DNA of 64,000 bases from Desulfomonilia bacterium (GCA_050014195.1 JBEKDT010000003.1:1-64000), one strand, 5' to 3'. Positions 1 through 52,613 are shown, numbered from the stretch's first letter. Numbers and translations are program-made. Notes: a model not told the origin generated them from the letters alone.

Positions 1-657
1 TCGAAGATTGATTTGGAATATCAGTGTGTTGCATGATAACCATAGCAGATATTCTCTAAATCTCCAATGAGAAAATGCTCTTTTACTCAATTATTTCAAC
101 TAACTATACTTTCCGGATGGGCACTAAATAGATAATATATGAATGATGCTAACCGGCATCTCCTTTTAACATAAAATTTCATTAGGGATTAAATACAGTA
201 ATCTTAACATATCATAATCAAAATATTAATTCAATATATGAATTGAAATATATTCCATTTATTCTATCATGTATTTCACTCACAATCTTAATGAAACGAA
301 GGTTGCTATTTGAAATTACTTCCTCCTACAAAGTTAAATATTTCTTCGATAAATATATGACTTCTATCTCGGGATTCCAACCATAGATTTCGTGCCAAAA
401 TCAATGCTTTTATATTATTGTATGTGTCTGAACAAAATCTATACTCGTCGATGAAGTAGATACGAATGAGTATCTATAATCACCTTAAGTGATAAACGTG
501 AGTGTAGATATCTGTAATGAATGAGAGCTTCACGGTGGCCTGAAAAGTTCTGATCTCCAAAGAAAACCTTCAAAACTGGCCTACTACCGATTGCCTACGC
601 TAGGTGCACTTTCTGAGAGAATCAACTTGCTGGTACTGGAGCTGAATGCCAATCAAT

Positions 658-1806
658 TTATAGCGAGTTGGAGAAATCCTCAAATACTACATCAATAGGA
701 ATTGCAAATCCTATACCTTCGGCGTGGGTTAGAATCATGGTGTTAACGCCCAAGACATTCCCCTGCTTGTCGATAAGGGGGCCACCGCTGTTGCCGGGAT
801 TGATTGCTGCGTCAATCTGTAAATATGTTTCGTCACTGTTCGCCCTCTTTCTGTATGCGGAAAAGACCCCTGAAGTCACGGTATTGCTCAACCCAAAAGG
901 ACTCCCGATAGTATATACAACTTGGCCCTGTTCAAGACGTTGCTCTTTTGTATTCCGTTTCAAAATCTGGCCGGAGATCGAATCAACTTTCAAAAGGGCC
1001 AGATCGTGGGTAGCGCTAGGTATAATAATATCAACCGAATACTCCTTGTTGTCAGCAGTAACTATCTTGAGATCCTGGGAGTACTTCTGATCCGTTAACT
1101 TCGCAACCCTTTCCTCGTTTTTTCGCTGTATAGGCAATGCTTTGTTTACTTCATCCTCCTTGCCCTGGATGATAAGTTCCAATTGACTCCTGCTAGGCCC
1201 GGCAGGAATTTGCAGTATCTTTCCTTTCCACTCATTGATTTTTTCAATTTCAAGATCAATTATCTTCCGGTTTCGCTCTACACTGTTTTTGAATGCTTCA
1301 AAGCTAGTGTCATCGAACGTGACAACATGCTTGTTTGTTATTACAGCATGCTCACCAATAAAAAATCCTGAGCCAAGGCTACCCCAGGGGGTGCGAACCA
1401 AGACTGTCCCGCTTAGAGCTCTCTGGATGGGTTCTTCATTCGACCACTTGTTATCTGAATTTTCGGCTATTTTGACCGGCAATGATTGGGACGATTTTCC
1501 CTTAACATTCTGGATCGTTTGGTCAGTTACTGGGGGATTAACCTTATTAAGGCCAGACAAAAAATGCGATCGCCCCCCAAAATATATTGCGGTTACAAAG
1601 GTCGATATGATAACCAGACTGACCATTATTACAACACGGCGGTTCCCGGAACCGGTCGCCTCTATCGTAACCTGTTCAGCCTCGGCTTTCTTTCGGGCCT
1701 CAGCCTGAAAATATTTTTCAAAAACAATCCCGCAGGTTTCACACTCAATCTCGTTGGTAATTTTACTTAAACATTTAGGGCATTGATCCAATACCTTCCC
1801 TGTCAT
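658..1806 (-). CDS. Membrane-anchored trypsin-like (S1C/HtrA-type, no PDZ) serine protease with N-terminal zinc ribbon
   Basis: CPKC..CETC ribbon, one TM helix, GSGFFI, TNKHVV (His), DLALLKV (Asp), INPGNSGGPL (Ser). ATG at 1806 follows GGAGGAG. Confidence 0.85.
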   Translation of the reverse strand: MTGKVLDQCPKCLSKITNEIECETCGIVFEKYFQAEARKKAEAEQVTIEATGSGNRRVVIMVSLVIISTFVTAIYFGGRSHFLSGLNKVNPPVTDQTIQNVKGKSSQSLPVKIAENSDNKWSNEEPIQRALSGTVLVRTPWGSLGSGFFIGEHAVITNKHVVTFDDTSFEAFKNSVERNRKIIDLEIEKINEWKGKILQIPAGPSRSQLELIIQGKEDEVNKALPIQRKNEERVAKLTDQKYSQDLKIVTADNKEYSVDIIIPSATHDLALLKVDSISGQILKRNTKEQRLEQGQVVYTIGSPFGLSNTVTSGVFSAYRKRANSDETYLQIDAAINPGNSGGPLIDKQGNVLGVNTMILTHAEGIGFAIPIDVVFEDFSNSL

Positions 1807-2332
1807 TGGTTTGTTCTCCTCCCGTGAATTAATGAAAAGAACCTTCAAGTTTTAGTGATACTAATATTCTACATGTAGAAATAATGATCGAATATCTTTT
1901 AGATTTAACCATATAACTCATTTTAATGATTATCGGCAAAATATCAGCAAAGCTGTAGCCAATTCAAAGTAGCGTAATATCGCTCATAAATCCTCTCATC
2001 AAATATATTGTGTGTAAGATATGGTGTAACCACATAATAATTGGGAGTAATAAATCTATTTAATGCATGAAACAGTCAATAGAGAAAGGTTTTCACAACA
2101 GGGAACTCATAAAGAGTGGCTCTGACCTTGCTAACATCAGGAACACTGCTTTTATAAATGAATTGATAAAAAATTATTAAGATATTTTATAGAAGAACAA
2201 GTGTAGATAACTGTAATCTATGTGGAATTTTCTGGGATACAAGAAGTTATGGTATTCAAGAAACACCTACCAACTGTATGATATTGTCAGAAATATATGT
2301 AATAAAGGTCTACAAGGAGATAGAATATATTT

Positions 2333-3313: not shown

Positions 3314-3438
3314 TTTACAAGATCATATCTCAGAGGTCTCTCATATAGGGAGATGAATGTCCTCAAAGTTCTCAACCTACCTCGCTGTTATTTATTTCTG
3401 ATTTCATTATAATAAGTGAAAAACTCCAGGAGGTAGAT

Positions 3439-4107
3439 ATGGACGTCATTGATGCTATGAAGTCGCGATTCACATGCCGGGCTTTCACCTCTGAACCAGT
3501 GGACAATAAGACGATCCTCACGATTATGGAGGCTGCGCTGCGGGCCCCTTCATGGGGGAATACGCAGCCCTGGGAGATATTCGTCGCCAGCGGGAAGGCA
3601 GCGAACAGGTTACGGGAGGCCTATACGGAGAGGTTTGCCAGGGAAATGCCCCTTAACCCGGATATTCCCAGGCCGCTTCCGAAGGACTGGCCTCCTGCAC
3701 TCAAGGAACGGTATGAGAAATTGAGAAATGACCGTTCAGATTTTCTGGGGCTGAATCGTGATAATGAGAAGGACATGCGTGAGCTCATGGTTCGTAACTT
3801 TTGCTTTTTCGATGCGCCTACTGTCATCTTCCTCTGCATGGACCGCACCCTGACACCTTGGTCCTTATTCGACCTGGGTGCACTATCGCAGAGTATCATG
3901 CTCATCGCCTGTGAGAATGGGCTGGGCACTGCAGTGGCGGTCCAGCTGGCTTCATATCCAGACCTGGTCCGCAAAGAGTTGGGTATCCCTGAGAATCTGG
4001 CTGTGTGCATCGGGATAGCTATCGGCCACATCGACCCTTCGAACCCACAAAATATATTCAGAAGCACACGCAGGCCTATGGACGAGATCGTAAGGATTAA
4101 GGACTAG
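3439..4107 (+). CDS. Nitroreductase family protein (copy 1)
   Basis: RFTCRAF, APSWGNTQPWEIFV, FFDAP, DLGALSQSIML; AGGAGG RBS. Confidence 0.9.
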   Translation: MDVIDAMKSRFTCRAFTSEPVDNKTILTIMEAALRAPSWGNTQPWEIFVASGKAANRLREAYTERFAREMPLNPDIPRPLPKDWPPALKERYEKLRNDRSDFLGLNRDNEKDMRELMVRNFCFFDAPTVIFLCMDRTLTPWSLFDLGALSQSIMLIACENGLGTAVAVQLASYPDLVRKELGIPENLAVCIGIAIGHIDPSNPQNIFRSTRRPMDEIVRIKD

Positions 4108-4158
4108 GCAGGAGATATCCCAAGGGACACTGATGATCTTGAGAAAGGAGATTCATTC

Positions 4159-4917
4159 ATGGAAAACCATCTTGCACAAAAGACAGCCATTATCACTGGA
4201 GCAAGTTCCGGTATTGGGCGTGCAACAGCGTTAGCCCTGGCAAAGGCAGGTGCATCGGTTGTTATTTATGCCCGCCGAAAAGACAGGCTTGACGAACTGG
4301 CTTTAGAGATTGCGGCCTTGGGTGGCAAAGCCCTTGTTGTGGCAGGTGATGCAAGTAATCAATCTGAGATCGATCTGCTTCTGGATAGTACTTTGGCCTG
4401 GAATGATGGTGGAAACAAGTATGACATTGTTATCGTAAATGCAGGTCGTGGACTTGCAGGAGGAATCCTCAGCAGTGAAGAATCACAATGGGAAGATCTT
4501 TATCAGATTAATGTCCTTGGCGCTGCACATCTGATGCGCCGTGCGGGGCAATACATGGTTCAGCGAAAAAGTGGTGATATCGTGGTTCTCGGTTCGGTTG
4601 CCGGGAGGAATATCTCTCCTTTTAGTGGTTTTTACGGTTCAACCAAATTCGCTATTGGGGCCATTGCAGAAGGTTTTCGTCGTGAGGTATGTCAGCATGG
4701 TGTGCGGGTTGCCACTGTCATGCCGGGGGTGGTTCTCAGCGAATTCCAGGAAGTGGCTGGCTATAATGAAGAGAATTTTGGAAAAGGTGTAGCCCAATTC
4801 GGCACACTGCTGGAGCCCAAGGCCATTGCCGACGGAATTTGTTGGCTGCTCACATTGCCGCCGTATGTCAACGTTAACGAGATCATGATCCGACCTACAG
4901 GTCAAAGCTACCCATGA
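4159..4917 (+). CDS. SDR family oxidoreductase (intact copy)
   Basis: TGASSGIG, VNAG and YGSTK motifs. Confidence 0.9.
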   Translation: MENHLAQKTAIITGASSGIGRATALALAKAGASVVIYARRKDRLDELALEIAALGGKALVVAGDASNQSEIDLLLDSTLAWNDGGNKYDIVIVNAGRGLAGGILSSEESQWEDLYQINVLGAAHLMRRAGQYMVQRKSGDIVVLGSVAGRNISPFSGFYGSTKFAIGAIAEGFRREVCQHGVRVATVMPGVVLSEFQEVAGYNEENFGKGVAQFGTLLEPKAIADGICWLLTLPPYVNVNEIMIRPTGQSYP

Positions 4918-5131
4918 CATAAGATGCAATAAGGTTAGATTGTTATCGAAGTGGGACTGATAGTAATGTTTAAGGCATGTGTTAGTTCACATAAGATATT
5001 AGAAGCTCGCCTTCCATAAAAGTTGCGATATCTGTAATAGATGTGCTTTTACATAAGGCTGAAAAACTAAGGTCTTCAGGTGATATCTATACTTTTAAGA
5101 CAATAGACTTGGACGTTAGAGATTAGCACGC

Positions 5132-5363
5132 TCTTACCCCGGGACAATTCCACATGTGCCTTGTTTGATAATTCCCTGTTCCGCGATTCATATTCCCTGA
5201 TATGTTGAGTAGGGAATTCTTATGTAACCTGCTGGAATGAGTTATCATATCGACGCCATTTATTTAATTTCGGTCCCAGAAACGACAAAATTCCTTGTAA
5301 ATTCCCTGATAAACAGGTAATTGGGTATAGAGAGTGGTTCGCAGATGACTGTCTGCACCACCA
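5132..5363 (+). repeat. 232-bp att-like element, copy 1 (direct repeat of 52614-52845)
   Basis: Same length as copy 2 and highly similar by eye; several ATTCCCTG/CAGGGAAT motifs; ends GGTTCGCAGATGACTGTCTGCACCACCA. Confidence 0.9.
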
Positions 5364-6183: not shown

Positions 6184-6512
6184 AAAATTATCCTATCGTT
6201 CAAACCCTTCTTCGTCCTGGGATACAGTACTCGTGTGCCTTATTCGCATATTCTTGTTTCATAGGAATATTCAGTTTGACGGAGTATCCCTCAATATGTT
6301 GAGGTTCCGCCAAATAGTGAGGCTAAACGAATCATTTCATACTTTTCTGCTGCTCTCTTCTATTCATCTAACCAGATGTTATTAATGGATGAATCTAAAC
6401 TTATGATCTTCCTTCGGCTCTTGGCCGACCATTTGCTCTTATAGTGAATAACATGATGACTATCTAGTTGTTATTTTCCTTGATCACCTGAAAAGAGGGA
6501 TGAGGTAACAAA

Positions 6513-6722
6513 ATGCAAATGAACGCAGACCTATTAAATATTCTTGCTGTGATCAAAACCGAACTCCTGAATCCACACTGGGGACAGTATCGCAGTAATG
6601 TCATAAATCCCTATGAAGATGTATCGCCTCGTATCGTTGCAGAAAAAATTGCTCAAGCCCTTCAGTCAACCGTCTCCAGCAACCCTGCAGTTCTGCAGAA
6701 TTCGCTGGCTTTACGAGGATGA
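6513..6722 (+). CDS. Small hypothetical protein (69 aa) directly upstream of the RpoH-like gene
   Basis: GAGG RBS before the ATG; stop lies 4 nt before the next ATG. Confidence 0.45.
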   Translation: MQMNADLLNILAVIKTELLNPHWGQYRSNVINPYEDVSPRIVAEKIAQALQSTVSSNPAVLQNSLALRG

Positions 6723-6726
6723 GTTC

Positions 6727-7590: not shown

Positions 7591-7698
7591 GGGAGAAGTC
7601 AACTCCATGGCAAGGCATACAAAAGACATAATAAACGAACTCATGATCCTGCAGAATAGAATGAATACTATTAGATCTGTGGTAAATGAGGTGGTTCC

Positions 7699-8697
7699 AT
7701 GAAAAAGGCGATGATTCTTACTGCTTTACTTTTCCTGGTTTTTCCAAGCGTGTCCAAAGGGGATTACCATGAAGCTTTAAAAAATGGGGACTACAAAGCC
7801 GCACTAAATGAATTGATGCCACTAGCAGAAAAAGGGGGTGCCAGTGCCCAGTACAAACTTGGGTGGATGTATTTTAATGGCCAAGGTGTACTGCAGGACT
7901 ATGCCGAATCGGCAAGGTGGTATAGGAAGGCGGCCGATCAGGGGCATGCCGATGCCCAAAACAACCTTGGGGCTATGTATGAACATGGCCTAGGTGTTAC
8001 ACAGGACTATGCCGAGGCGGTCAAGTGGTACACGAAGGCGGCTGATCAGGGGCGTGTCGAGGCCCAGTACAACCTTGGGGCTATGTATGAACATGGCCTA
8101 GGCGTTACACAGGACTATTCCGAAGTGTTGAAGTGGTACAGGAAGGCAGCTGACCAGGGTGATGCCGATGCCCAGTACAGCCTTGGGGCTATGTATTCAA
8201 ATAGCCAAGGTGTACCACAGGACTATGCCGAGGCGGCGAGTTGGTGCAAGAAGGCGGCTGATCAGGGCGATGCCGGTGCCCAGTACAACCTTGGTGTTAT
8301 GTATGCAGATGGCCAAGGCGTACAACAGGACTATGTCGAGGCGGCGAGATGGTACAGGAAGGCGGCTGATCAGGGGCATGCAAGTGCTCAGTACAACCTT
8401 GGGGCTATGTATGCAAATGGCCAAGGCGTTACACAGGACTATGCTAAGGCAGTGGGGTGGTGTAAGAAGGCGGCCGATCAGGGCGTTGCCAGTGCCCAAT
8501 ACCAACTTGGGGTTATGTATGCACAAGGCCAAGTTGTTCCTCGAGATTATGTTCAGGCGCACATATGGACCAACCTTGCTGCCGCACAAGGAGATGAAGA
8601 AGCTGCTAAGATAAGGGATATGGTTGCTCAAAAGATGACATCTGCACAAATAGCAACAGCGCAGAAACTAGCAAGAAAATGGAAACCAAAAAAATGA
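7699..8697 (+). CDS. Secreted Sel1-repeat protein (7 repeats)
   Basis: Signal peptide, then 36-aa units AQYNLGxMYxxGxGVxQDYxEAxxWYxKAADQG (108-bp DNA repeats). Confidence 0.95.
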   Translation: MKKAMILTALLFLVFPSVSKGDYHEALKNGDYKAALNELMPLAEKGGASAQYKLGWMYFNGQGVLQDYAESARWYRKAADQGHADAQNNLGAMYEHGLGVTQDYAEAVKWYTKAADQGRVEAQYNLGAMYEHGLGVTQDYSEVLKWYRKAADQGDADAQYSLGAMYSNSQGVPQDYAEAASWCKKAADQGDAGAQYNLGVMYADGQGVQQDYVEAARWYRKAADQGHASAQYNLGAMYANGQGVTQDYAKAVGWCKKAADQGVASAQYQLGVMYAQGQVVPRDYVQAHIWTNLAAAQGDEEAAKIRDMVAQKMTSAQIATAQKLARKWKPKK

Positions 8698-8921
8698 TAA
8701 GTCTTTTGTATAGATCGCTTACCATCATCCCCTCTCTAAATTGAAGTGACCTTTTACATAGGTTCATCAAAAGATGTTCAGTTTTCAGCCCTCTCAAAAC
8801 CGATATGAAATCGAAGAGATCTACACTTTATAAACTTCCTGGGATTTTATTATGGTTTGTTAAATGGTAGAAGACTTATTCACCACTCCATAATGTAAGC
8901 TACAGTATACCCAACTTTCAG

Positions 8922-11474: not shown

Positions 11475-11793
11475 CTTTTCACCTTCAAATTATTCTGAAC
11501 TATAAGACGTCTGAAGCACAGCGTTTGTTTACAATGGAAAAGCGATGATTACATACCAAATGTCACGCTCTGATATGAAGTGATAGGCTTCGTATGTTTT
11601 AATCCAAGACCTTCAATTTTCTCTCATCTCAAAACCGAGAAGAAATCGCGAGTATGTTGGAAAGTGCAGCAGCCGTATGCTACGAATCCTGACAAGAGCA
11701 TAGGACGGAAGGCGGTTTGGCAGCACCTTTTTTCGATGCGTTTGGGTTCCTTCCTCCAGCCGGTGGACTAGCCATGGATATGCGCGGTCATGC

Positions 11794-13110: not shown

Positions 13111-14949
13111 GAGATTGTTGAAAAAGTACTAACTGCTTTTAAAGCAAGAAGTCGATAAAATATCATCAGAAAAACAATATTAATCTATATTAACAATTGG
13201 TTATGTGATATAGTTGGATTGTCTTCAAGGGGTAGGATTCTCTCTCTCCTCACCCGACTCCTGAAGCGAAAGGATACCATGGCCAAGTATAAACCATACA
13301 CCTATGCACAGGATATGCTGATACCGGTATCGCTCAGGGAACAGCTCATGCCCGGGACCCTGGAATTCGCGATCCATACACTTGTAGATGAGCGTATGGA
13401 TGTGAGCATATTCGATGAGAAGTACCGCAACGATGAGACCGGACGGCGGGCATACGATCCCCGGATTCTGCTGAAGGTAGTATTGCTGGGATATTCACGG
13501 GGTCTGATATCGTCCAGGAAGATCGAGCAGGCATGCAAGGAGAACGTGGTGTTCATGGCACTTTCGTGCGGGCAGTATCCTGACCACAGCACGATAGCCC
13601 CATTTGTTGCATCCATGAAAGATGAGATCCTGCCGTTGTTCAGGGATGTACTGCTGGTATGCGAGGAGATGAATCTGCTCGGAGGGACGTTCTTCGCATT
13701 GGACGGGTGCAAGCTTAAATGCAATGCCTCCCCGCAGTGGAGCAGGACGGTATCCGAGCTTCGGGCGAAACGGGAGAAGCTTGGGGAGAAGGTGAAGGAA
13801 CTGCTGACAGAGCAGGAGAAGGAAGACCGGAAAGAAGATGATGATTCGCCTTCTCCTGATAATCGTTCCCACCGGGGAAAACAGATTGATAAACTGAAGA
13901 AGGAGGCTGATCGGATCGAAGCATGGCTGAAGGAGAACGGGGAACGACTCGGGGTAAGCGGCAAGGAGATCAAGAGCAACATGACGGACAACGAGTCATC
14001 GAAGATGGTCACCTCCAACGGGACGGTTCAGGGATACAACGGCCAGGCGCTTGTGGACTCGAAGAGACAGGTGATCGTTCATGCGGAGGTGTTTGGTACT
14101 GGCCATGACCATGGCCTTGTTCCACCGATGCTGGATGGGGCCATGGAGAACCTGGAGAAGATAGGTCTATCCCGAGATTATTTTAAAGGGACAACGTTCG
14201 CTGCGGACAGCGGGTACCACAGTAAGAGCAATATCCAGAAGTGTGAAGACGAGAAGCTGGATGCATACATTCCTGATAAGCGATTACGCACGAGGGACCC
14301 GCTGTATGGTGAATGGAGACGGCAAGGTCGTATGACCAGGACCCACTATGCTCTTGGGGACTTCCTCTATAATGAGGAAGAGGATCATTATGTCTGTCCC
14401 AATGGGAAGATACTGCGTCTTAGGGTGAAGCAAAGTGCATATACGGGGAACGTATATCGCACATATAGAGCACAAGAACACGATTGCAGCGGTTGTGGGC
14501 TGAGAGAGAAATGTCTTTATGGAAAAGCCCGAGGGCCAAAGAACCTGATGGTCCCTATCGGTCCTGATGGGATCAACCTCACCAAGCTCATGATAGAGAA
14601 GATCGAGAGTGAGAAAGGGCGTAAGATTTACCCCCAACGTATGGCAATCGTAGAGCCGGTATTCGGCAATATCCGCACCAACAAACGACTGGATCGGTTT
14701 ACCCTGAGAGGAAAGATCAAGGTCAACATTCAATGGCTCTTGTATTGTATGGTTCACAATATAGAGAAGATCGCAAACTATGGCTTTGCATGAAATAAAA
14801 AAAGGGGGGGTGATTCTTTTAACAAAGGTTCATTGCCATGATCGTATGACCTGAAGAAAGCAGAAATCTAAAAAAACGTAATGATGATTTGAAAAAGTAT
14901 CAGTTAGATGGAAAAAATCTTCTGCCTAAAAGGGTTTTTCGACTGCCTC
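13111..14949 (+). mobile_element. IS1182-family insertion sequence
   Basis: Imperfect terminal inverted repeats GAGATTGTTGAAAAA / TTTTTCGACTGCCTC around the transposase. Confidence 0.7.
13279..14793 (+). CDS. IS1182-family transposase
   Basis: GRRAYDPRILLKVVL, PDHSTI, ALDGCK, GYNGQ, ADSGY, VEPVFGNI motifs. Confidence 0.92.
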   Translation: MAKYKPYTYAQDMLIPVSLREQLMPGTLEFAIHTLVDERMDVSIFDEKYRNDETGRRAYDPRILLKVVLLGYSRGLISSRKIEQACKENVVFMALSCGQYPDHSTIAPFVASMKDEILPLFRDVLLVCEEMNLLGGTFFALDGCKLKCNASPQWSRTVSELRAKREKLGEKVKELLTEQEKEDRKEDDDSPSPDNRSHRGKQIDKLKKEADRIEAWLKENGERLGVSGKEIKSNMTDNESSKMVTSNGTVQGYNGQALVDSKRQVIVHAEVFGTGHDHGLVPPMLDGAMENLEKIGLSRDYFKGTTFAADSGYHSKSNIQKCEDEKLDAYIPDKRLRTRDPLYGEWRRQGRMTRTHYALGDFLYNEEEDHYVCPNGKILRLRVKQSAYTGNVYRTYRAQEHDCSGCGLREKCLYGKARGPKNLMVPIGPDGINLTKLMIEKIESEKGRKIYPQRMAIVEPVFGNIRTNKRLDRFTLRGKIKVNIQWLLYCMVHNIEKIANYGFA

Positions 14950-26311: not shown

Positions 26312-26785
26312 TACCCGCATTCCCTTCAGTCTGAACTGTATTCCGATCCAAATCTGATCCCGAGAGATCTTGCCATTGCAATACTCTTTTCAATAATACG
26401 ATTCATCAGGATCACACCACTATAGGTAACTCCAATATCAGCATTTTCAATAGAAATGCTGACAGGTAAAACAGTTAATCTCTGATGGATGTGTCTTTGA
26501 TCTACCACTAAGAGAAGCTCCCTACGTTCTCACTCTCAACAGTGATCCCACTATTCCTGCACGTGGGTATAGGGGGGCATCCGCTCGACACAGCATGAGA
26601 GCACATACATATGTGATTGATTGTTTGGATGCCCCCCTGCGATCAATGACATTCAATGCAATGGGTATATGATAATGAGCAGGATGGGGGAAGTCAAAAT
26701 GGGTGATGATTATGGTTGCAGATATTTAGTGTGGACAAAGCGTAAGAGATGGCACGAAATCTATGGTTTAAGTATTTTAATCATA

Positions 26786-26871
26786 GGGTCAATTCCCCAC
26801 AGTTTGTTGCGATTGCCCTATTCTTTATAAAATGTTTTGATACCCCATAGCTTGCTGCGGGGTGATTCATT
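26786..26871 (+). mobile_element. Small palindrome-ended MITE/REP-like remnant
   Basis: Two related GC hairpin ends: GGGTCAATTCCCCACAGTTTGTTGCG and TACCCCATAGCTTGCTGCGGGGTGATTCATT. Confidence 0.4.
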
Positions 26872-28227: not shown

Positions 28228-28868
28228 TCATCCATCCTGTTTAGGATTCATTAACCATCTTGGGCATAAAAATTAATAGAAAGCAAAATCTGAATGAGTT
28301 CCTAAACAGATTCATGATGGGAAATCACAGAGGCGTAAGTGTTTTATTTCATATCATGAAATGTGTATCAAATCTATATCGGGGCACAGATTCCTGATAC
28401 CTATCACAGCATAAGGGGTATACAAAAAATCCCCTTGGTATAAGTGTCTATGACATTGAACATCGTATTCATAACTTCGCCTTATTCGCGCAGGAAGGGT
28501 TTTGATTGTTTCCTCTATCCAAGTGGGTGAGTTCATGAATGGATTCTTTCTCAGGACGTATATAGACCGGTTATTCGAGATATCAGGTATGACACACGTC
28601 CTTGAATCTCTACAAAAGCGCAGATTCCGGAGTTTTTCCCTTATCAAGCAAAGCAGATATAACTTCGATATATTCTCAGTTTTGAAATGCCTGGAACCGA
28701 TGATCTTGGGTTGAAACATACACAATAAGACACTTCATGTCAGACCGTGGCGATTGGCACGTAATCTATGATTTTCCATGCCCATCTTTTGCGATGATTA
28801 TGGAAAGTTATCTATGCTCAGGAATAACCATTGGCCTTGACAATATTACCTGGTGCTTTCTGTACAAA

Positions 28869-29430
28869 CTACAAAAAGGGGACATAATTTTCCACAAAGG
28901 CATCGATCTCGCTCATATGGAGGAAGCTGTCCCCCAAAGTCCTTGGCATGTTCGGATTTACCTCTGCTACCACATATTGGGCAATCTCGGCTGCAGTCTT
29001 GGTTATATCAACAGAGATCTCCAGGCTTACATACCCGCTGTTGTCGGGAGGGGACACGGTGATGAGGGCAACATCGATGTGCATGCTCCCTCTTTGCATA
29101 AGCAGGGGGATCTCCGAGAGGAAGATGGGTGTATAGTCCGCCCTGCCTTCCTTGATGGCGGCACGTGTGTTCGAGCCGATGAACAGTGCCTTGTGGCGGA
29201 ATTATTCAGTATACTTCTCATCCGTATATGAGGCGAGCCCGAGATCCAGAAAGTGGATGATCTCGGTGTCTGCAAGGTTCTGTGCCACATCGATGAGTGT
29301 CTTTACCAGGAGCTGGGGCTCCCCGCACGCAGAGCCGATAAATATCCGCGCCCCCCTCCTGATCCGGGAGAGTGCAGTCCTCGCATCGGTAAGCCTTTCT
29401 TTATATGTGTCATGCAAGTTAAGGATCATA
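28869..29430 (-). pseudogene. Acetyl-CoA hydrolase/transferase N-terminal remnant
   Basis: RIFIGSACGEPQ, GRADYTPIFLSEIP, VVAEVNPNMPRTLGDSF; in-frame TAA at 29202-29204; homology ends beside a repeat copy. Confidence 0.85.
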
Positions 29431-29436
29431 TGAATC

Positions 29437-32863: not shown

Positions 32864-32871
32864 AGCTCTCT

Positions 32872-33720: not shown

Positions 33721-34840
33721 GGTTAAGACTCCTGAAGATCATAGGAATTTAGAGACATATGCTAAATCCAGCATCGTCGATTGCCCCGGCGTAAGCCTGC
33801 ATGGGCGTGTGTTCATGATAGGCGTTGACTGCATGTTAATCCTTCACACTACACAGAGATAAATACAGTTAATGGCTAAAGGCGACGACGGACAGACAAG
33901 CAACGGCACGGTGCGCACCAGGCATAATAGGACCAGGGTACCAATCAGGCCTGATCTTCTAAGAAAGAGAGTTAAAGACACGAGAAGGGGCAGAGGATGT
34001 TGTTTGACTTGACTCAAAACAACACTATTAGGCAGAACGCTCAGGATAATAACATCCCATAAGAACGATAGCTTTCGATAAAACATCTTAATCCATGACC
34101 TCTGAAACCTCTTTTAATAGAAACCTTAAATAAGACCGGGCCTTTGTTTGTCAAGGAGGATAAAAGAGGATCAAAATTATCTTATAGTGCATATTTCAAC
34201 CGAAGATCTCTATAGGTCAAGAAGAATGGTTCAGTATAAATATCTATAGTGCGCCGGGAGACCGGCAAGAAGTAAAGGGTAAAAGACACACAGTAAAGAA
34301 ATAACAAAACATACTGTTATCAAGTCATGCACGGAGTGTTTACGAAGCGTTAACAGGGATACGTGAATTGCTAACAGCAGGGATTAGTGCTGGGGGTGTT
34401 CCGTAAGGGGCATCCCTAACGTGATATAAATTGCTGGCCCAAATCTCAGATTGAACCATTGATTCCTATGAAAGAATGTCATGCTTAAGGCAAAAAATAT
34501 TATGACCCAAATGCAGGCCCAATTGAAGGATAGCATCCACATTTATCTTAACTATTGGAACTACTCCCGCCTCAAGGGATCTCCAATAGTTTGGATAAAG
34601 GGCATCATGTATAATTGTATAATAATCTTTCATTGGTCGGGGTGGAAGACCCTTCCATGGGTGATTTTTGCGATAAATTGGTGCTTTCGAAAGGCTCTAA
34701 AATTGAAGATTTTGGTTTGAAACCTATGCTGCAAGGCGCTCCATATCAGAGCGTGTCCTATGGCACGTGATCTATGGATTAAGTATTTCAACAGTATATT
34801 GCCTTGCGCTCAATATATGGATATACTGCATCTGTGATTC

Positions 34841-34888: not shown

Positions 34889-34903
34889 CAACATATACCA
34901 ATC

Positions 34904-35524: not shown

Positions 35525-35545
35525 AAATAACTGAAATAACTATAT

Positions 35546-35595
35546 GGGCTAACTAGAGCATCCAGAAGGATACGGGTTAATGCTCAGCGTTATCA
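35546..35595 (+). other. attC-like site
   Basis: GGGCTAAC-TA-GAGCAT...ATGCTC-AGC-GTTA; GGGCTAA is the exact complement of TTAGCCC at 34882. Confidence 0.55.
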
Positions 35596-36074
35596 CAAAT
35601 TAATATTCCTGCAATTTCTTCTCTCTTCTGTGGTGTCTGGAAACTGTAGATCTTGAGTTGAAACATACGCAGTGAGACACTTCATACCAGAACGTTGCAC
35701 CTGGCACGTTATCTATGGTTTTGAAAATCCCAACTCAGTTCGTTGCCTTTGACACATAATCTATACTTATACTCAAAAGAATTTATGGATACATGACAAA
35801 CATAATCATCTTTTCCGTGTTAATGTTGCCATATTCCTTGTAACCGGTTTATTATGATCAATTATTTTAATTCACAGTTTGTGAAAATTAATTTTAATTT
35901 AATTGTGATTTTATATTATTAATCTTGATATTTATTTTGTTAAGTGTATTATAGCAAATAGCGGAAACCTATGCATTTGTGATTCCCTATCATCTTTGTT
36001 CCCTATCATCAGTGATTGTGGTGGTTACATCCGGAAGGAGAGATATTGTGTCAAGAGCAGAAAGAGAGGAAATC

Positions 36075-36257: not shown

Positions 36258-37087
36258 CACCAAGCTTTAATAGTCTTTTTTAGTATCTGATGGGGGAGCT
36301 GCAGATAGCCCTATCAGATTGATAAGAGATATGTATTCAAGATCAATGAAGCTGATCACATAGGGTTAAAGCAGATCTGTTGGAACAAATTTTATGCTTT
36401 CATGTATACATCATCATGATCCACCATTCATGGGATCACCAATGTAAGAAGAATCCTTGAGTGTGATTATTTATTACCTACAACGTGAATATCTTGAGGT
36501 ATAAGCTCTGTTGTGAAGATGCTCTCCCAGACTGAGGAGTGTAGCACGAAATCAACGGTTTTGAAAATCTCATCTCAGTTCGTTGCCTCTGGCACAAAAT
36601 CATCAGTCGACGTCAACCAGAAATTACCTCAAAAAAATATAATTTTATGTTCCCATAGAACATCCCCTAATATGCACGGAATTGCAGTCATGGGCCGATC
36701 ATTTTGCTTTCATGTTTCTGGAAGTTGCCTATAGATACATCTTCCCCGTATAGAGAACCTTTGTCTGATTCTACGCATCCAAATATTTTGGATCTGGAAC
36801 CGTGGCAAGGCGAGTAATCGCCCGATATCTTGCCTAGGGCTTATGATCGAGAGAAATAGCCTTTACAGGGTATTTCTTAAGACATGCAGAGATACGTAAA
36901 ACGTAATCTGAAAAGGTTAGAGACATCTTACCGCCGGCCAGGTTCTAGACCCGTTTTTTACTGAACATATTGTTTTCCTATTTTAATTCACCTCTGTTCT
37001 TTGCCTCCACTCTTCGTCTTTATTTCCGTTTGGCAATCTCGGCCTGGAGCTCCTTGTTTGCTTTTGCAAGCTTCTGCGTGCGTTCCG

Positions 37088-39709: not shown

Positions 39710-39839
39710 ATATTCATGATAAAAGGAACTTACCTGTAATACAAGAGAAGAGCGAAGGATGCGAAACATTTAACTCAACAGCAGGGCCAATGTCTCCCAT
39801 GATGGGTGCTAAGGCTGTGGTAACATCGCTTCAGAAACA

Positions 39840-41938: not shown

Positions 41939-42221
41939 ACCGGGACCACCGAGGAGAATCAGGGTCATCCAATTTTTTAATATTTGGATAGACCAGAGAT
42001 TCAATTTCATATCGGCTTTATTATGTCTAAAAACTGAAGATCGGTAGCACGCTAACCAAAGTACCGGGTAATCCTTCATTTCAAAAACAGCTTTTCCAAC
42101 GGTCTCGTTTAAGATCTATGGTATTTAGGCTACAGACTCACGGCGACGGTCCTGGCATAAAATCTACACTTTGCCCAAGATTATAATACCCGGGAGGTTA
42201 TTATACTCCATCAACAGGTGG

Positions 42222-46566: not shown

Positions 46567-49113
46567 TCATCGTTGCCAGAGGATTCGTGCGTTTTCCAGT
46601 GGGATCGTGGCGCCGTCATAGTGCGGTATCACTCGCGCCGTATAGTCGGCTGGTGGGCGGTCCGCAGACACAGCCGCACTGTACACGTAGTCGCCCGACG
46701 CGACGGCCAGTTGGCGAACGCGCTTCATCTCCTGCCGCACGGGAGCACTGCCCATGATGCCGTTGGCGTAGAGCTCTACCCGCACCGCCTCGGGGTCGAG
46801 GTCATCGAGATAGACCTGAATCTCAAATACGTGCTGCCCGCCGCGAGTCTCAACCTTCACTTCGCCGAAGTGCAGCGTGGCCCATTTCTGTTCCAGGCTG
46901 TGCTGCCAATCGACCATTTGTTTTCCGATTGCGCCTTTATCGGCAATGCGCACATGGTAGGCGGCAGCAGCAGGAAGGTAGTGTTGCTCGGTGTATTCGC
47001 GCACCGTGCGGCTGGCGGAGAAGCGCGGTGTCAACAGCGTCATGCTTTCCCGCATCCGCCTGACCCATGCGGTGGGAATGCCTCTCTCGTCTCGGGTATA
47101 AAACTCCGGAATCACCTCCCGCTCGAGCAGGTCGTAGAGCGCGTCGGCTTCAACAGCGTCCCAAACGGGATCGTCGCCATGCTCCCGGCCGTCCCCCAGC
47201 GCCCACCCCACCTCAGGGGTGTACGCCTCGGCCCACCAGCCGTCCAATTCCGAAAGGTTGATGCCTCCATTCACGAGCACCTTCATGCCGCTCGTGCCGC
47301 TGGCCTCCCAGAGCCGCCGTGGCGTGTTCAGCCAGACATCGACCCCCTGAACCAGGTGTTCGGTCAAATGCATGTCGTAGTCACTGAGGAAGATCACATG
47401 GGGGCGGGCCTCGGGTCGCTGAATGAAATGTGTCCATTCCTGAATCAGGGCCTGCCCAGCCTGGTCTGCCGGATGGGCCTTGCCGGCAATGATGAGTTGC
47501 ACCGGGCGCTGAGGATTGGCTAACAGGCGAAGCAGCCGCTCCGGGTTGTGGAGCAGCAGGTGCGGCCTCTTGTAGGTCGCGAATCGGCGCGCAAAGCCCA
47601 GTCTCAGTACACCAGGATCAAACAGATGCTTCGCTCTATCGACTACATCGGGCAACGCGCCGGAGACCGCCAGTTGCCGGGCCAGGCGCTCACGCGCGTA
47701 TTCAATGAGTGACGTGCGGGCATCGGTACGAAGCTGCCAGAGGCTGGTGTCGGAGGCACGGCGAATATCCTGCTCCAGGGTTTCCGTGGTTCTCAACCAA
47801 CATTCCTTTCCACAGGCCTTCGTCCAAAGATCCTCGGCTGCCTCCGAGTCCCAGCTCGGCATGTGAACTCCGTTGGTCACGTGTCCAACAGGCACTTCAT
47901 CCGCCGGCCAGCGGGGAAAAAGAGGTTCAAAGAGTTTCCGGCTGACTTTCCCATGCAAGCGGCTCACGCCATTGACTGCCCCGCTGCCTCGGATTGCCAG
48001 ATAGGCCATGTTGAAACTCTCCGACGAGTCGTTCGGGTTCTGGCGGCCCAGGGCAAGCAAGTCGTGGAGTGTCATGCAGAGCTTCTACTCGGCATAACCA
48101 CCGAGGTATTGTTCGATGAGAGCCGGAGTGAAACGATCGAAGCCGGAGTCCACAGCCGTGTGAGTGGTGAAGAGGTTGCCGGCGCGCGTGGCCGCCAGTG
48201 CTACTTCGAAGGGCTGCCCTGTCTTTTTCATGAAACTCCACGCTCGTTCCAACACAGCGAAGGCCGCATGCCCTTCATTCAGATGGCAGACTTCCGGCTG
48301 GATGCCGAGCATGGCAAGCAACCGCCATCCGCCGATCCCAAGTACCATCTCCTGCTTGAGGCGCAACTCCGGCCCACCCCCGTACAGCTCACTGGTAATG
48401 GCTCTGTGAACCGGGAGGTTCGATAGGTCATTGCTGTCGAGAAGGTAAAGCTTCACTCTGCCCACCTGAACCTGCCAGGCGCGAAGCCAGACGGGGTAAC
48501 CCGGCAAGTCAAGTTGCAGCCGCAACCAATCACCGTTCGATTCGCGCAACGGCGTGATCGGCAACTGTCCGGGGTCGTTATAAGGAAAGAGGGCCTGTTG
48601 CGCTCCGTCGTTGTCGATCACCTGGCGAAAATATCCTTGCTGGTAGAGCAGGCCCACGCCGACCACAGGAACGCCCAGATCACTGGCTGCTTTGAGCTGA
48701 TCACCGGCCACGTTGCCGAGCCCGCCTGAGTAGATTGGCAGCGCTTCGCTAAACATGAATTCCATGCTGAAATAAGCGACGCAGGTTAATGGAGATCGGG
48801 GGTATGTCTGGTGAAACCACGCATGAGCCTCCGTCGCCTGGCGTCTGGTTTGTACAAGAGCATCCACCTTCTTGCGGAAAGAAGGATCGGCTGACATGCG
48901 TTCGATCTGCTCCCGCGAGACGGTCTGCAACACGATCCACGGGTTTTGAGTAAGCTCCCACAATGCTGGATCAAGCTGTTGCCATACTTCATCGGCGTAA
49001 TGATTCCACGACCAGCGCATATCCAGGGCAAGCTCGGCAAGGGAATCGAACCCTTCGACTTCCGTGGGCAGTAAGCTGTATCTGGGGTGGATGACACGAA
49101 CTTGTTTACTCAT
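46567..49113 (-). pseudogene. glgP: Alpha-glucan phosphorylase interrupted by one in-frame TAG (48085-48087)
   Basis: YSGGLG, NEGH, FARRFATYKR, EASGTSGMK; both ORF halves share a frame across GAG-TAG-AAG. Confidence 0.85.
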
Positions 49114-49843: not shown

Positions 49844-50136
49844 ACGGTCTCCTTTTAAGAATGAAATTCTCACTGTGTCTATCAGGAATATACCATGTCT
49901 CTATATTTATGGCTATATTTTCAATATGTAAGATAACATTCCATAGGTCATCTTAAAAAAAGCACCGCTGTTCGTTTTTTTGTTATTAATCAACTAAGCA
50001 TGAAAGGCTAATTTCGGAGGGTTGTGAAGAGTCTATGTATGGTTAATGGAGGGTTGTGTTTTAAATGAAAGAACCGTTGTCTGGCCAATACCTAAACCAC
50101 CTCCGGTGACGATAGCTACTCTATCTTTAAACTATC

Positions 50137-50742
50137 TCATGGGTAGCTCTGACCTGTAGGGCGGATCATAATTTCGTTAACGTTGACATGCGGCGGCAAT
50201 GTGAGCAGCCAATGAATACCGTCGGCAATGGCCTTGGGCTCAAGTAGTTTGCCGAATTGGGCTATACCTTTCCCGAAATTCTCTTCGTTGTAGCCGGCCA
50301 CTTCCTGGAATTCACTGAGAACAATCCCGGGCATGACTATGGAAACACGCACACCATGCTGACATACTTCACGGCGAAAACCTTCTGCAATGGCTCCAAT
50401 GGCGAATTTGGTCGAACCGTAAAACCCGCTGAAGGGAGAGACATTCCTTCCAGCAACCGAACCTAAAACGACGATGTCATACTTGTGTCCACCATCATCC
50501 CAGTCCAAAGTGCTATCCAGAAGCAGATCGATTTCAGATTGATTACTTGCATCACCTGCCACAACAAGGGCCTTGCCACCCAAGGCCGCGATCTCTAAAG
50601 CCAGTTCGTCCAGTCTGTCCTGACGCCGGGCATGCATCACAACCGATGCACCTGCCTTTGCCAGAGTCAGGGCTGTTGCACGCCCAATACCGGAACTGGC
50701 CCCGGTTATGATGGCCGTCTTTTGTGCAAGAAGGTTTTCCAT
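50137..50742 (-). pseudogene. SDR oxidoreductase paralogue of 4159-4917 with a 51-codon in-frame deletion
   Basis: Near-identical protein, but YDIV jumps to VLGSVAG; the NAG region is lost. Confidence 0.8.
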
Positions 50743-51262
50743 TATTGGGTCTCCTTTCTCAAAATCATCAATTAATATAGAATTGCCGTTCGTTTTTCTG
50801 TAAGTCAACCCAACCCAATACCTCCTCACTCTATATATATTAATTCCTGAAGACCAACCATATCTTGAATTCACTCAGAGAAGAGGGACCACCATGTACA
50901 AGTATTAGTAGTGTGGGGTCACCCAATTAAAATACTTAAATCATAGCTTTTGTGCCAAGGCCAATAGATATTCCAGAGCATAGATTTATTTTGATAATCA
51001 TCGAAAAAGAGGAGCACGGAAAAGTGAAGATTACATACCATATGACACGCACTGGTATGACGTGAGGGGCTTCGTAGGTTTCAACGCAAGATCATCAGTT
51101 TTCAGGTATTTCAAAACCAAGATGAAATCGTAGAAATCACCCATGGACGGGTCTTCCAGCTCGAGCAATGAAAGATTATTATACGGTTATACATCATTCC
51201 CTTTACCTAAACTGTTGGAGATCCCTTGAGGCGGGAGTCATTCCAATAGTAGGAGAACTAAA

Positions 51263-52123
51263 ATGATTCGGTTACGGAAACACATGCAGGTTTTGGGCAT
51301 ACTGCTGGCTTTGGTATGCGCCTCAACAAGCACTTGGGCCCTTGCAGAAGTGAGCGATCTCTTCAAGGCGGCCTACGATGGTGATCTTTACCAAGTCAAG
51401 GCGTTGATCTCTGCCAAGGCCGATGTGAACGCTAAGATAGGCGACGGTGCCACCGCGTTGATGGCGGCATCGCAGAATGGCCACCTGGAGGTGGTGCAGG
51501 CGTTGATAACTGCCAAGGCCGATGTAAACGCTAAGGCTGCCAATGGCGACACTGCGTTGATACTGGCGTCGCAGCAAGGCCACCAGGAGGTGGTGCAGGC
51601 ACTTATCGATGCCAAGGCCGATGTAAACGCTAAGAAGGGCTATGGCAGTACGGCGTTAATGATGGCGTCGTTGGAGGGCCACCAAGGAGTGGTACAGGAG
51701 CTTATTTCTGCCAAGGCCGATGTGAACGCGAAGGCGGACGATGGCAGTACGGCGTTGATGGCTGCGTCGCTGGAGGGTAACCAAGGAGTGGTACAGGAGC
51801 TTATTGCTGCCAAGGCCGATGTGAACGCGAAGGCGGACGATGGCAGTACGGCGTTGATGATTGCGTCACTGGAGGGTCACCAGGTGGTGGTGCAAGCACT
51901 TATCATTGCCAAGGCCGATGTGAACGCCAAGACGGCTGAAGGTTACACGGCGTTGATAGTGGCATCTGAGAAGGGAAACCAGGGAGTGGTGAGACTGCTT
52001 ATTGCTGCCAAGGTCGATGTGAATGCCAAGACGGGCGATGGCACCACTGCGTTGATGATGGCGTCGCAGCAGGGCCACCAGGAGGTGGTGCAACTTCTCA
52101 AGAAGGCGGGCGCTGTTAAATAG
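51263..52123 (+). CDS. Secreted ankyrin-repeat protein (about 8 repeats)
   Basis: Signal peptide; 33-aa GxTALMxASxxGHxxVVQxLIxAKADVNAK units. Confidence 0.95.
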   Translation: MIRLRKHMQVLGILLALVCASTSTWALAEVSDLFKAAYDGDLYQVKALISAKADVNAKIGDGATALMAASQNGHLEVVQALITAKADVNAKAANGDTALILASQQGHQEVVQALIDAKADVNAKKGYGSTALMMASLEGHQGVVQELISAKADVNAKADDGSTALMAASLEGNQGVVQELIAAKADVNAKADDGSTALMIASLEGHQVVVQALIIAKADVNAKTAEGYTALIVASEKGNQGVVRLLIAAKVDVNAKTGDGTTALMMASQQGHQEVVQLLKKAGAVK

Positions 52124-52613
52124 CAAAGTATAGGGTCGCCCATTAAAGGTTCCTGTTTAATGCTGGCTCATCTGAAGATTTATGTGATAAATTTATGAGT
52201 GCTATCTCAGGATTCCAACCATAGATTTGATAATCATCGAAAAAGATGGGCATGGAAAAGCATAGATCACATACCATTTATTACGATTAGCCCAGATTGA
52301 AGATTTCTTCGAATGACCAATTTTGAGTATACCCAAAAACTGATGATCTCAAAACAAGATCTGCACAAATCATTATCCTTTTAGGGGAATACAAGGGCAA
52401 TTGTCAGATCTTATGTTAACTTTAGTGCTACTTCTGTATGATCAGATCTTAACTATTGCACCTAACGACTTAATAGGTATTTCCGTTTGCTGCTTGGTTT
52501 CCAGACGGTATTTCATTTTTTCAAGTATTACCGTTTGTACTCTCGCATGGTGATCGAAAGCAGTCAATCATTGACTTCAGGAAGAAACTGACCGTTGATG
52601 TTAAGGCCTACAT

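Follow-up and report, generated by a model that had tools for sequence, protein, structure and literature searches.

Several described systems share features with the intergenic repeat family analyzed here. IS26, which is 820 bp long, carries the gene for its own transposase. The Neisseria intergenic mosaic elements (NIMEs; dRS3/RS) and 'minimal mobile elements' are modular intergenic repeats located at strain-variable whole-gene sites and targeted by insertion elements; we know of no description of co-oriented one-gene arrays for NIMEs. REP/BIME palindromes are specific targets of insertion sequences, e.g., IS1397. Integron attC/cassette arrays, including CALINs, resemble the present family as genus-specific repeats of ~120 nt that are co-oriented, often one gene apart, and carried on accessory DNA. 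IS26-type translocatable units and pseudo-compound arrays (PMC4196232), as well as pairs of MITEs that flank and mobilize genes (PMC3934969; PMC3184786), are further systems of this kind. IS26 arrays comprise copies in direct orientation interleaved with unrelated cargo, one copy being common to neighboring segments, the unit consists of one copy and adjacent DNA, and internal copies are not surrounded by target duplications, while MITEs are small, non-coding, multi-copy, intergenic elements with short inverted end motifs, pairs of which bracket genes. Both descriptions resemble the family reported below.

The window, i.e., the whole stretch of 64,000 nucleotides from a Desulfomonilia bacterium in which the repeats were noticed, had been predicted to carry one non-coding element shared by at least ten intergenic spacers. 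We named this non-coding intergenic repeat family F1 and built a profile from 11 window copies. The prediction proved correct: the profile gave 94 matches at E<0.01 in the 4.2-Mb genome, 65 of them at E<1e-5, whereas the reversed genome gave 0. All 11 copies predicted originally were found again, ten of them with a second profile (E-values from 5e-40 to 4e-4) and the copy at 348-397 with the first one. The copies and the features surrounding them in the window are as follows.

337..480, plus strand: degenerate F1 copy comprising a 5' module and a partial core (first profile 373-480, E 1.3e-11)
337-390, plus strand: part of this first copy belonging to repeat family D13 (85% to 52175-52228)
8670..8829, plus strand: F1 copy (E 2.5e-23), at whose 5' TAGAT motif the homology with congener G007, having run through the sigma70+Sel1 module, ends
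8922-11474, minus strand: 850-aa ORF with no Pfam family
11514..11655, plus strand: F1 copy (E 1.1e-33), which brackets the 850-aa ORF together with the copy at 8670
13130..14900, plus strand: IS1182-family insertion sequence (NF033551, 311.7 bits, cut-off 270), with F1-like sequence on its left flank only
26704..26815, minus strand: partial F1 copy (model positions 4-126; E 2.1e-8)
28650..28821, minus strand: full-length F1 copy with 5' 'module A' (E 5e-40), abutting the acetyl-CoA hydrolase remnant
28830..29433, minus strand: acetyl-CoA hydrolase/transferase remnant, a fragment of the N-terminal domain only (28869-29099 matches AcetylCoA_hydro positions 121-189)
34551-34660: shared module 3' of the next F1 copy (pair I3); the same module precedes the ankyrin gene
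34660..34796, minus strand: F1 copy (E 2.6e-28) with that further shared module on its 3' side
35598..35776, minus strand: F1 copy with duplicated 5' module (35598-35731, E 2.2e-32; 35723-35776, first profile; family D12)
36486..36630, minus strand: diverged F1 copy (E 1.1e-10)
42000..42178, minus strand: F1 copy split by an insertion of ~60 nt (42000-42042, second profile; 42103-42178, first profile, E 8e-8)
50926..51141, plus strand: full-length F1 copy preceded by two TAGAT-type modules (50973-51141, E 2.2e-39; pair I6)
51263-52123: ankyrin gene, between the F1 copies at 50973 and 52215
52215..52344, plus strand: F1 copy of a variant subfamily (E 4.7e-7), which brackets the ankyrin gene with the copy at 50973

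F1 is restricted to one genus of peat-dwelling Desulfomonilia: profile searches detected it in 8 of 14 congeners, whereas 0 of 16 genomes of other genera had it; among the 15 genomes of the genus, including the present one, 7 are F1-rich, 2 contain a single match, and 6 contain none. F1 was not found in viral contigs, plasmids, or phages of the public collections searched, and a literature search confined to Desulfomonilia repeats yielded unrelated papers. The 24 matches listed among sequencing runs were all contigs of DNA from peat or wetland samples, with no RNA data set among them. Since several F1 copies are spanned by contigs of independent runs, from peat and from wetland, exactly as in the window, the arrangement is not an assembly artifact. 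Repeats are common in this genome, where shared repeats connect 402 of 2021 intergenic regions; other examples are a 184-nt TIR element (~100 copies) and a 56-nt palindrome (~128 copies).

F1 is AT-rich, 125-175 nt long overall, and devoid of ORFs, with a conserved core of ~125 nt that has sharp edges and is extended at its 5' side by a mosaic of variable add-on modules. A short inverted AGAT-type motif (consensus ~AAAG-N3-AGATWAC) is present at each end of the core. The TAGAT/ATCTA sub-motif, reported originally to recur inside the element, marks the 5' edge of the core, appears again ~47 nt upstream in many copies, and is inverted at the 3' edge. The terminal windows of the profile form the top inverted pair among 5886 (z 4.4), two internal window pairs scoring almost equally, and no within-copy covariation was found between the two ends. 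Compared with MITEs, F1 has a terminal repeat that is weak in individual copies (local score 5.3 vs. 4.7 for shuffled ends), no target-site duplication in the flanks of 34 copies judged by eye, and no autonomous partner that could be found. In contrast to IS26, it is ~125 bp long and encodes nothing, with no IS6-family DDE transposase within the element, a cognate transposase was not found, and its copies are old and diverged instead of identical (mean pairwise identity 65%, median nearest-neighbor identity 75%).

With ORFs of 110 aa or more as the reference, 42 of the 45 strong F1 copies are intergenic, a single one falls within an ORF, and the other 2 are found at contig edges, in a genome of which such ORFs cover 84%. 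The GC content of F1 flanks is 0.457 compared to 0.501 across all intergenic regions (p 1.6e-16) and to 0.50-0.53 for five other repeat families checked. F1 is confined to low-GC accessory DNA of foreign appearance. Neighboring copies are co-oriented: adjacent copies within 6 kb comprise 23 pairs of the same and 0 of different orientation, and all pairs within 6 kb comprise 30 and 0, respectively, compared to 14 and 19 at 6-20 kb. In the loci of two congeners, a hand count of F1 neighbors gave 12 pairs of the same and 3 of different orientation. Most neighboring copies bracket single genes, 19 of 32 inter-copy intervals containing one and only one ORF of 110 aa or more; in the window, as predicted, same-orientation pairs enclose the 850-aa ORF, the ORFs at 34904-35524 and 35979-36257, and the ankyrin gene. 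Low-GC location, local co-orientation, and one-gene spacing set F1 apart from the other repeat families of the genome. Co-orientation with a single copy between cargo segments is shared with IS26-like arrays; it is not a MITE property when strict and local, and the genome's own TIR repeat family R0, used as a control, comprises 5 pairs of the same and 13 of different orientation. The cargo of F1 arrays lies on both strands, retains its own upstream regions, and sometimes includes whole operons; array genes are enriched for paralogues (11 of 40 vs. 50 of 400; p 0.015). Array-neighbor copies (identity 0.66) are no more alike than other pairs (0.65), so the arrays are not local duplications. F1 orientation is associated with neither GC skew nor gene-strand majority at 25-50 kb, and a replication-linked orientation is unsupported, since co-orientation is gone beyond 6 kb and GC skew shows no association at that scale.

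Comparison with congeners revealed reshuffling around F1. A block in which an F1 core is combined with an NTP_transf_8 gene and a further 165 nt recurs in G007 at 88% identity but in another context, and the homology begins at the 5' TAGAT motif. The sigma70+Sel1 module is common to the window and G007 up to and including the 5' TAGAT motif, and one F1 copy of G003 has on its left the left flank of G000 C12:92289-92930 and on its right the right flank of C21:54589-58957. Synteny breakpoints do fall at or near F1 edges, as expected from the original prediction, but not at one nucleotide: some coincide with the motif, some are displaced outward from it by 12-16 nt, and some are close to the F1 3' end. 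Cargo modules were re-associated beside F1 between species, but some were found in other species without F1, the DsbA and ORF-92 modules having no evident F1 adjoining them in alignments inspected by eye without the profile. F1 copies on shared modules were less conserved than adjacent non-coding DNA (79% vs. 86-90% and 71% vs. 89%). The truncation of the acetyl-CoA hydrolase gene was also confirmed to abut an F1 copy: the fragment stops ~10 nt from the repeat, and the G007 gene is intact, encoding Pfam domains AcetylCoA_hydro and AcetylCoA_hyd_C. Only two contig joints connecting F1 copies were found, one leading from 28749 to 35702 (skipping 6952 bases) and the other from 35667 back to 28764 (6904 bases). 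Both lie inside the repeat, with sides of 55 and 33 letters at 92% likeness, for which other copies or strains are a possible source, and one of them contains loop sequence of neither parent; their geometry, which is that expected of a deletion product and a circle junction, is at most a hint, speaks neither for nor against such events, and does not amount to a demonstrated excision product.

F1 is also a target of an IS1182-family insertion sequence. G003 contains three near-identical IS1182-family copies, each of which has entered a separate F1 copy, always at one and the same position and with duplication of TAC, and all three IS1182-family copies in G007 lie beside F1 pieces (one seen directly, two deduced from coordinates). 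The insertion point adjoins a 6-4-6 palindrome of the GTGCCA type (~16 bp) contained in F1, and the IS1182-family transposase recognizes one fixed F1 position. No recombinase or transposase family is associated with the arrays. F1 resembles NIMEs as a mosaic of short modules at module-variable sites that is targeted by insertion elements, but differs in sequence, host, and architecture. It resembles REP/BIME elements in that an insertion sequence enters a dispersed repeat at one fixed position; however, it is long and AT-rich, with a palindrome of only ~16 bp, in contrast to the GC-rich REP/BIME palindromes of 20-40 nt.

Starting from what is observed, namely the family and its edges, low-GC confinement, co-orientation, one-gene spacing, re-association of flanks, and insertion-sequence targeting, F1 probably marks sites where gene-sized modules are swapped. 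We tentatively regard it as a decayed non-autonomous mobile element, copies of which may well act as portable insertion or recombination sites. One F1 copy together with the neighboring gene or genes would leave as a circle, which would re-enter at another F1 copy, similarly to the single-copy 'translocatable units' of IS26 or to Campbell-type insertion; such exit and re-entry would automatically yield directly repeated copies interleaved with cargo. The events could be catalyzed by a transposase acting in trans, either not assembled or now lost, or by host recombination, and their direction is deduced. Ends or remnants of an unrecognized mobile element, marking and probably promoting module exchange, agree better with these data than the new cassette system proposed originally; a dedicated new cassette system is a hypothesis.

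It is possible, although on the whole somewhat unlikely, that F1 belongs to the ordinary selfish repeats of MITE or REP type and, with no role in gene movement, merely inserted into AT-rich dispensable intergenic DNA. Arrays would then result from strand-biased insertion followed by inheritance in small blocks and frequent larger inversions. This explanation suits a genome full of other intergenic repeat families, as the linked intergenic regions attest, and it suits the movement of some modules without F1 and the failure to find an enzyme for it. It also agrees with the age of F1 copies; given their divergence (mean identity of 65%), plain homologous recombination between them would be inefficient and activity in recent times is doubtful, which counts against the reading favored here. 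However, neither confinement to low-GC DNA nor co-orientation is seen in the other families, the co-orientation of F1 drops abruptly beyond 6 kb and follows neither GC skew nor gene-strand majority at 25-50 kb, and several cross-species breakpoints lie at F1 edges.

An unlikely possibility is that F1 is the recombination site of an undescribed gene-capture system that lacks an integron integrase and is served in trans: like an IS26 translocatable unit or an attC, one copy and one gene would be excised as a circle, cut at the AGAT-type end motif, and inserted at another copy. In this way, one-gene arrays would come to be scattered over the accessory genome of an anaerobe living in the environment. 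Rather improbable is a dedicated site-specific, integron-like system in which F1 would be the attachment site for an unrecognized recombinase cutting the TAGAT-type motif. Such a system could account for co-oriented copies about one gene apart, for two junctions lying exactly at the 5' motif, for the fixed position recognized by the insertion sequence, and for column conservation that is strongly uneven (33 columns at least 90% conserved vs. 2.6 expected) and suggests constrained positions. In contrast, the remaining junctions fall at different points within or close to F1, the cargo occupies both strands with its own upstream regions and in whole operons, and no recombinase co-occurs with F1. 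The best match to the integron integrase model TIGR02249 in the whole genome scored 82.7 bits (cut-off 265), and array-adjacent integrases scored below all NCBIfam cut-offs. Integrases located beside two F1 arrays are missing from 14 of 14 and 12 of 14 congeners, including F1-rich G003 and G007, and array-adjacent tyrosine recombinases were rejected as the F1 catalyst for this reason. The recombinase association anticipated originally was not supported, none tracking F1 among congeners. The 58 ORFs scanned in congener F1 loci contain no Pfam recombinase domain and one unrelated DDE transposase. Two Y1 transposase genes of the genome lie far from F1, next to repeats of another kind, and no match was obtained to PF07282, a Pfam family of TnpB type; an IS200/IS605-type element was consequently rejected as the source of F1. 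We found no multi-copy transposase with F1-like ends and no high-copy transposase in the genome, and no transposase gene between pairs of F1 end motifs, which is weak evidence because MAGs often lack IS copies. The F1 end 14-mer with up to 2 mismatches was equally common in the genome and the reversed genome (168 against 185), so pairs of end motifs are uninformative about an autonomous partner.

Identity with integron attC sites was also rejected. The R'' (RYYYAAC) and R' (GTTRRRY) end boxes of attC are not present in F1, whose ends are of the AGAT type and whose only GTT-RRR-like string, as judged by reading, sits in the middle of the element. Unlike attC, which forms a long imperfect hairpin, F1 contains no hairpin-forming imperfect palindrome. 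RNAalifold predicted 0 pairs on both strands. In 12 DNA folds, covering each strand of 6 F1 copies, z ranged from +1.5 to -3.2 and no stem was shared; F1 has no conserved fold on either strand. Unlike integrons, F1 is accompanied by neither an integrase nor attI and forms many short dispersed arrays instead of one platform. Fold, end boxes, and the missing integrase exclude attC, the absence of a GC-rich hairpin of 20-40 nt speaks against REP, and the original statement that the element is not CRISPR, REP, attC, or dif is supported.

Very improbable is a cis-acting protein-binding or regulatory element (operator, nucleoid-protein site, mobile promoter, or insulator) selected in accessory regions. 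Uneven column conservation and the GTGCCA-type palindrome would agree with it, as would a weak correlation of the F1 strand with gene-strand majority within 10 kb (p 0.007, with non-independent copies). However, F1 occupies convergent (14), divergent (12), tandem antisense (11), and tandem sense (5) spacers, in either orientation relative to genes, and these mixed arrangements indicate a position that is not regulatory; moreover, F1 on shared modules evolves faster than neighboring non-coding DNA, and sigma-54 promoters have a -12 GC element that, from reading of the sequence, is missing from its TGGCAC part. That F1 encodes a small structured RNA, or is what remains of a decayed protein-coding gene, is scarcely credible: some of the copies, taken singly, fold a little better than their shuffled versions (z down to -3.2), a weak effect, but structured RNA was rejected given no consensus structure on either strand and no Rfam match (0 at the gathering threshold in the window; 0 at E up to 1 in six F1 copies), and a decayed ORF given variation without three-base periodicity (0.253, 0.258, 0.225), stops closing all six frames of the consensus by reading without computation (the longest, of ~33 codons on the reverse strand, ends with TAA).

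F1 provides a clear case of sequence-specific targeting of a dispersed repeat by an IS1182-family element, and, even on a conservative view, its profile is a marker of accessory, rearranged regions in the genus. If F1 copies truly are entry and exit points for single genes, they would constitute a second, integrase-free route to cassette-like arrays and would help to account for the assembly of a mosaic accessory genome in a peat lineage that is abundant but uncultured.

The dispersed non-coding intergenic repeat F1 is a genuine family, as shown by a repeat finder and by an alignment of the 11 copies that the original prediction had claimed in the window, all of which (11/11) were recovered by profile search. 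In the genome under study (4.2 Mb, 29 contigs, ~50% GC), a first profile built from these 11 copies gave 110 matches at E<0.01, and a second, built from 38 genomic copies, gave 94 at E<0.01 (E<1e-5 for 65 of them, E<1e-10 for 45), with 0 matches when the same profile was run against the reversed genome. Contigs of several peat/wetland runs span the window copies at 28.7 kb (28650-28821, minus strand) and 34.7-35.7 kb (34660-34796 and 35598-35776, minus strand) with exactly the arrangement of the window.

Information content climbs steeply into a core of about 125 nt and falls steeply at its 3' end. The TAGAT-type sub-motif reported earlier is real: it marks the 5' edge of the core, and in many copies it occurs again about 47 nt upstream, the upstream repeat being either an incomplete second core start or "module A", which lies 5' of the core in 9/65 copies. 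The same motif is present inverted at the 3' edge, and the profile ends form the top-scoring inverted pair of 5886 window pairs (z 4.4), with two internal pairs scoring nearly as high. End-to-end matching within single copies reached 5.3, versus 4.7 in shuffled controls; no within-copy covariation of the ends was found, and inspection of the flanks revealed no target-site duplication. A short GTGCCA-type palindrome lies 3' of the 5' motif. Conservation along F1 is very uneven, with 33 columns conserved at ≥90% and 15 at ≤50%, compared with 2.6 and 0.13, respectively, expected under a uniform rate.

RNAalifold gave no consensus structure for either strand, six copies folded as single-stranded DNA in both directions had no stem in common (z +1.5 to -3.2), Rfam returned no match even at E up to 1, and F1 variation had no three-base periodicity. 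Plasmid, phage, and viral-contig collections contained no match, and the whole genome encodes no integron integrase above the cut-off. In membership tests, F1 differed from both attC and IS26 and resembled MITEs in part only.

Forty-two of the 45 strong copies lie between ORFs of ≥110 aa, one is inside such an ORF, and two are at contig edges, in a genome of which these ORFs cover 84%. Every spacer type is represented (14 convergent, 12 divergent, 11 tandem antisense, 5 tandem sense), which argues against F1 being a promoter, leader, or terminator. When checked for confinement, F1 proved to occupy a low-GC setting (flanking GC 0.457 versus 0.501 for all intergenic regions, p 1.6e-16), unlike five other repeat families of this genome (0.50-0.53).

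Intergenic repeats are unusually abundant in this genome, where 402/2021 intergenic regions are connected by repeats that they have in common and F1 is outnumbered by two families. A 184-nt element bounded by clear terminal inverted repeats has about 100 copies (e.g., C2:108652-108835), and a 56-nt GC-rich palindrome about 128 (e.g., C18:68180-68235). Another repeat of about 170 nt, "family 2", is unrelated to F1 and has seven copies here and at least 11 in the F1-rich congener G007:
window 6270-6480, plus strand: family 2, directly upstream of the sigma-70 gene
C12:73477-73670: family 2
C12:76329-76486: family 2
C12:78532-78688: family 2
C2:92836-92993: family 2
C2:390200-390356: family 2
G007, C1:622-633 kb: family 2
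In 6/7 cases, an unrelated gene of the same orientation lies directly downstream of it, and in G007 six copies 1-3 kb apart form a co-oriented array containing the sigma70+Sel1 module of the window. The genome under study also has two to three copies of a large segment (C1:92-121 kb, C1:300-324 kb, C7:101-111 kb; protein identity ≥80%), which may be a repeated mobile element or reflect co-assembled strains.

The claim that same-orientation pairs of F1 enclose single genes was mostly borne out genome-wide. Neighboring copies ≤6 kb apart have the same orientation in 23 cases and different orientations in 0; counting all pairs within 6 kb, co-orientation is 30/30, and at 6-20 kb it is lost (14 same, 19 different). 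A control TIR family showed 5 same versus 13 different. Exactly one ORF of ≥110 aa is held by 19/32 of the inter-F1 intervals of ≤6 kb. Pairs in the fetched loci of G007 and of G003, another F1-rich congener, were 12 same and 3 different (counted by hand, excluding IS-split halves and one overlapping pair). At 25-50 kb, orientation was associated with neither GC skew nor the gene-strand majority. The copies are old (mean pairwise identity 65%, median nearest-neighbor identity 75%), and array neighbors are as unlike each other as distant copies (0.66 versus 0.65), so that the arrays are not local duplications.

Array cargo is diverse, comprising ankyrin, Sel1, PEP-CTERM, PilZ, HEPN, STAND, AbiEii-like, and Schlafen-like proteins, histidine kinases, second copies of the Mla operon and of class I aldolase, nitroreductase, and SDR genes, and also ordinary-looking genes such as those for Hsp33 and citrate synthase. 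Paralogs are commoner among array genes (11/40) than in the background (50/400, p 0.015). Within the window, three pieces are duplicated: SDR genes (4131-4921 and 50133-50770, inverted, 88-89%), nitroreductase genes (3391-3690 and 17366-17665, direct, 80%), and a 232-nt non-coding piece (5132-5363 and 52614-52845, direct, 91%). The window also encodes, all on the minus strand, an 850-aa ORF of no Pfam family with internal 66-nt repeats (8922-11474), an unusual MlaF fusion in which the Mla-operon ABC ATPase has a C-terminal GGDEF match (31619-32863, Pfam E 7e-7), a CheB-CheR-PAS fusion (37088-39769) with a 21-nt periodic coiled-coil region (37513-37680), and a glycogen/alpha-glucan phosphorylase divided between neighboring ORFs of 342 and 502 aa (46567-49113), a split that may reflect a frameshift or in-frame stop.

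Of 14 other species in the genus, eight had F1, four of them in many copies, and it was not found in 16 genomes of 12 other genera of the same family and class. When one genome from each of 185,579 species was scanned for an exact pattern, 37 loci resulted, 25 of them true F1 by profile; these came from three "delta proteobacterium" MAGs, one Desulfomonilia MAG, one Bacteriovoracaceae-labeled MAG, whose F1 loci have further sequence in common with the genome under study, and one 2.3 kb Micrarchaeota-labeled contig. Each of the remaining 12/37 was a lone match in an unrelated taxon, and by our calculation about as many would be expected by chance.

Comparison between species located several module breakpoints at or near F1. 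The acetyl-CoA hydrolase is intact and adjoins the Mla operon in G007; in the window, as predicted, it is truncated beside F1, with only an N-terminal fragment left, whose cut end and the outer end of the 28.7 kb copy are ~10 nt apart. On the corresponding side of a paralogous Mla operon, G003 has a chimeric F1 copy. Its left flank, together with the greater part of the repeat, corresponds to C12:92289-92930 of the genome under study (91%), and from the start of the core to the right it corresponds to C21:54589-58957 of that genome (94.6%), the change-over being near the 3' end of the core. G007 has the C7:67812-69213 block (F1 core, NTP_transf_8 gene, and 165 nt) at 88% identity, in another context with one F1 only, and homology begins at the 5' motif. 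The sigma70+Sel1 module (6283-8715) is common to G007 through the 5' motif inclusive, beyond which F1 follows in the genome under study and a different repeat in G007. Contig joints between the 28.7 kb and 35.7 kb copies have the geometry of reciprocal products, but they fall within the repeat and may stem from other copies or strains. Other boundaries are scattered: those of the ORF-92 (35781-36250) and DsbA (25709-26450) modules, which have no F1 evident by eye alongside them in G003 and the congener G002, lie 16 nt and ~200 nt from the nearest F1 edge, and those of a replaced segment on contig C4 ~150 nt off its F1 pieces. Where F1 copies are attached to shared modules, their conservation is below that of adjoining non-coding DNA (79% versus 86-90%; 71% versus 89%), which fits exchange within F1 but argues against simple purifying selection. 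A 390-nt piece of locus L055 (7446-7835; C7:69446-69835), overlapping a 150-aa ORF without a Pfam family, shows 85-90% conservation both in five congeners and at C8:106213-106591, more than its surroundings.

An IS1182-family element (NF033551, 311.7 bits) targets F1 sequence-specifically. In G003 (loci L074 and L075), it lies inside three different F1 copies at an identical position, directly past the 5' motif and next to the palindrome; it has 17-bp inverted repeats of its own and is accompanied by a TAC duplication. Three copies in G007 adjoin F1 pieces (one seen in locus L071, two from coordinates), and one is in the window:
window 13130-14900: IS1182-family copy, left flank F1-like
Its ends differ from those of F1, and it is therefore not the parent of F1.

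The predicted association with a recombinase or transposase family yielded no catalyst in domain scans or in the distribution among 14 congeners. Two tyrosine recombinases adjoining arrays are generic, below all NCBIfam cut-offs, and were rejected since their distribution does not follow F1: one is absent from 14/14 congeners, and the other has relatives (43-48%) in 2/14 only, neither being G003 or G007. The 58 ORFs of the congener loci included no Pfam recombinase domain and one unrelated DDE transposase ORF; Y1 transposases showed no linkage to F1, the TnpB-type family PF07282 gave no match, and the assembly contained no multi-copy transposase. MAGs often lose IS copies, and of 65 F1 copies, 15 are no more than 8 kb from a contig end, versus 11% expected. 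A 1.2 kb unit duplicated at 97% identity (C7:69927-71142 and C7:130613-131839), made up of the gene for a 364-aa tyrosine recombinase plus the 120 nt upstream of it, is absent from 14/14 congeners.

Insertion of a circle at a resident site is known from integron cassettes and Campbell-type insertion. The pattern expected from these and from IS26 translocatable units resembles that of F1 arrays. For IS26 translocatable units, a circle of one copy plus cargo is known to enter at a resident copy (PMC4196232). By analogy, a circle carrying one F1 copy and cargo would insert at a resident F1 copy, a model suggested by the strictly local direct orientation, the single copy shared between unrelated single-gene segments, neighbors no more alike than distant copies, and flanks re-associated at the repeat. 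The proposed cassette or recombination system is partly supported, by the co-oriented arrays and re-associated flanks. Confidence in circle insertion is low to moderate, because the copies are old, breakpoints are scattered, modules move without F1, and the enzyme is missing; the main rival is that F1 is an ordinary fossil repeat merely marking accessory DNA. F1 adds to the dispersed repeats a new, lineage-specific type whose arrays behave unusually.
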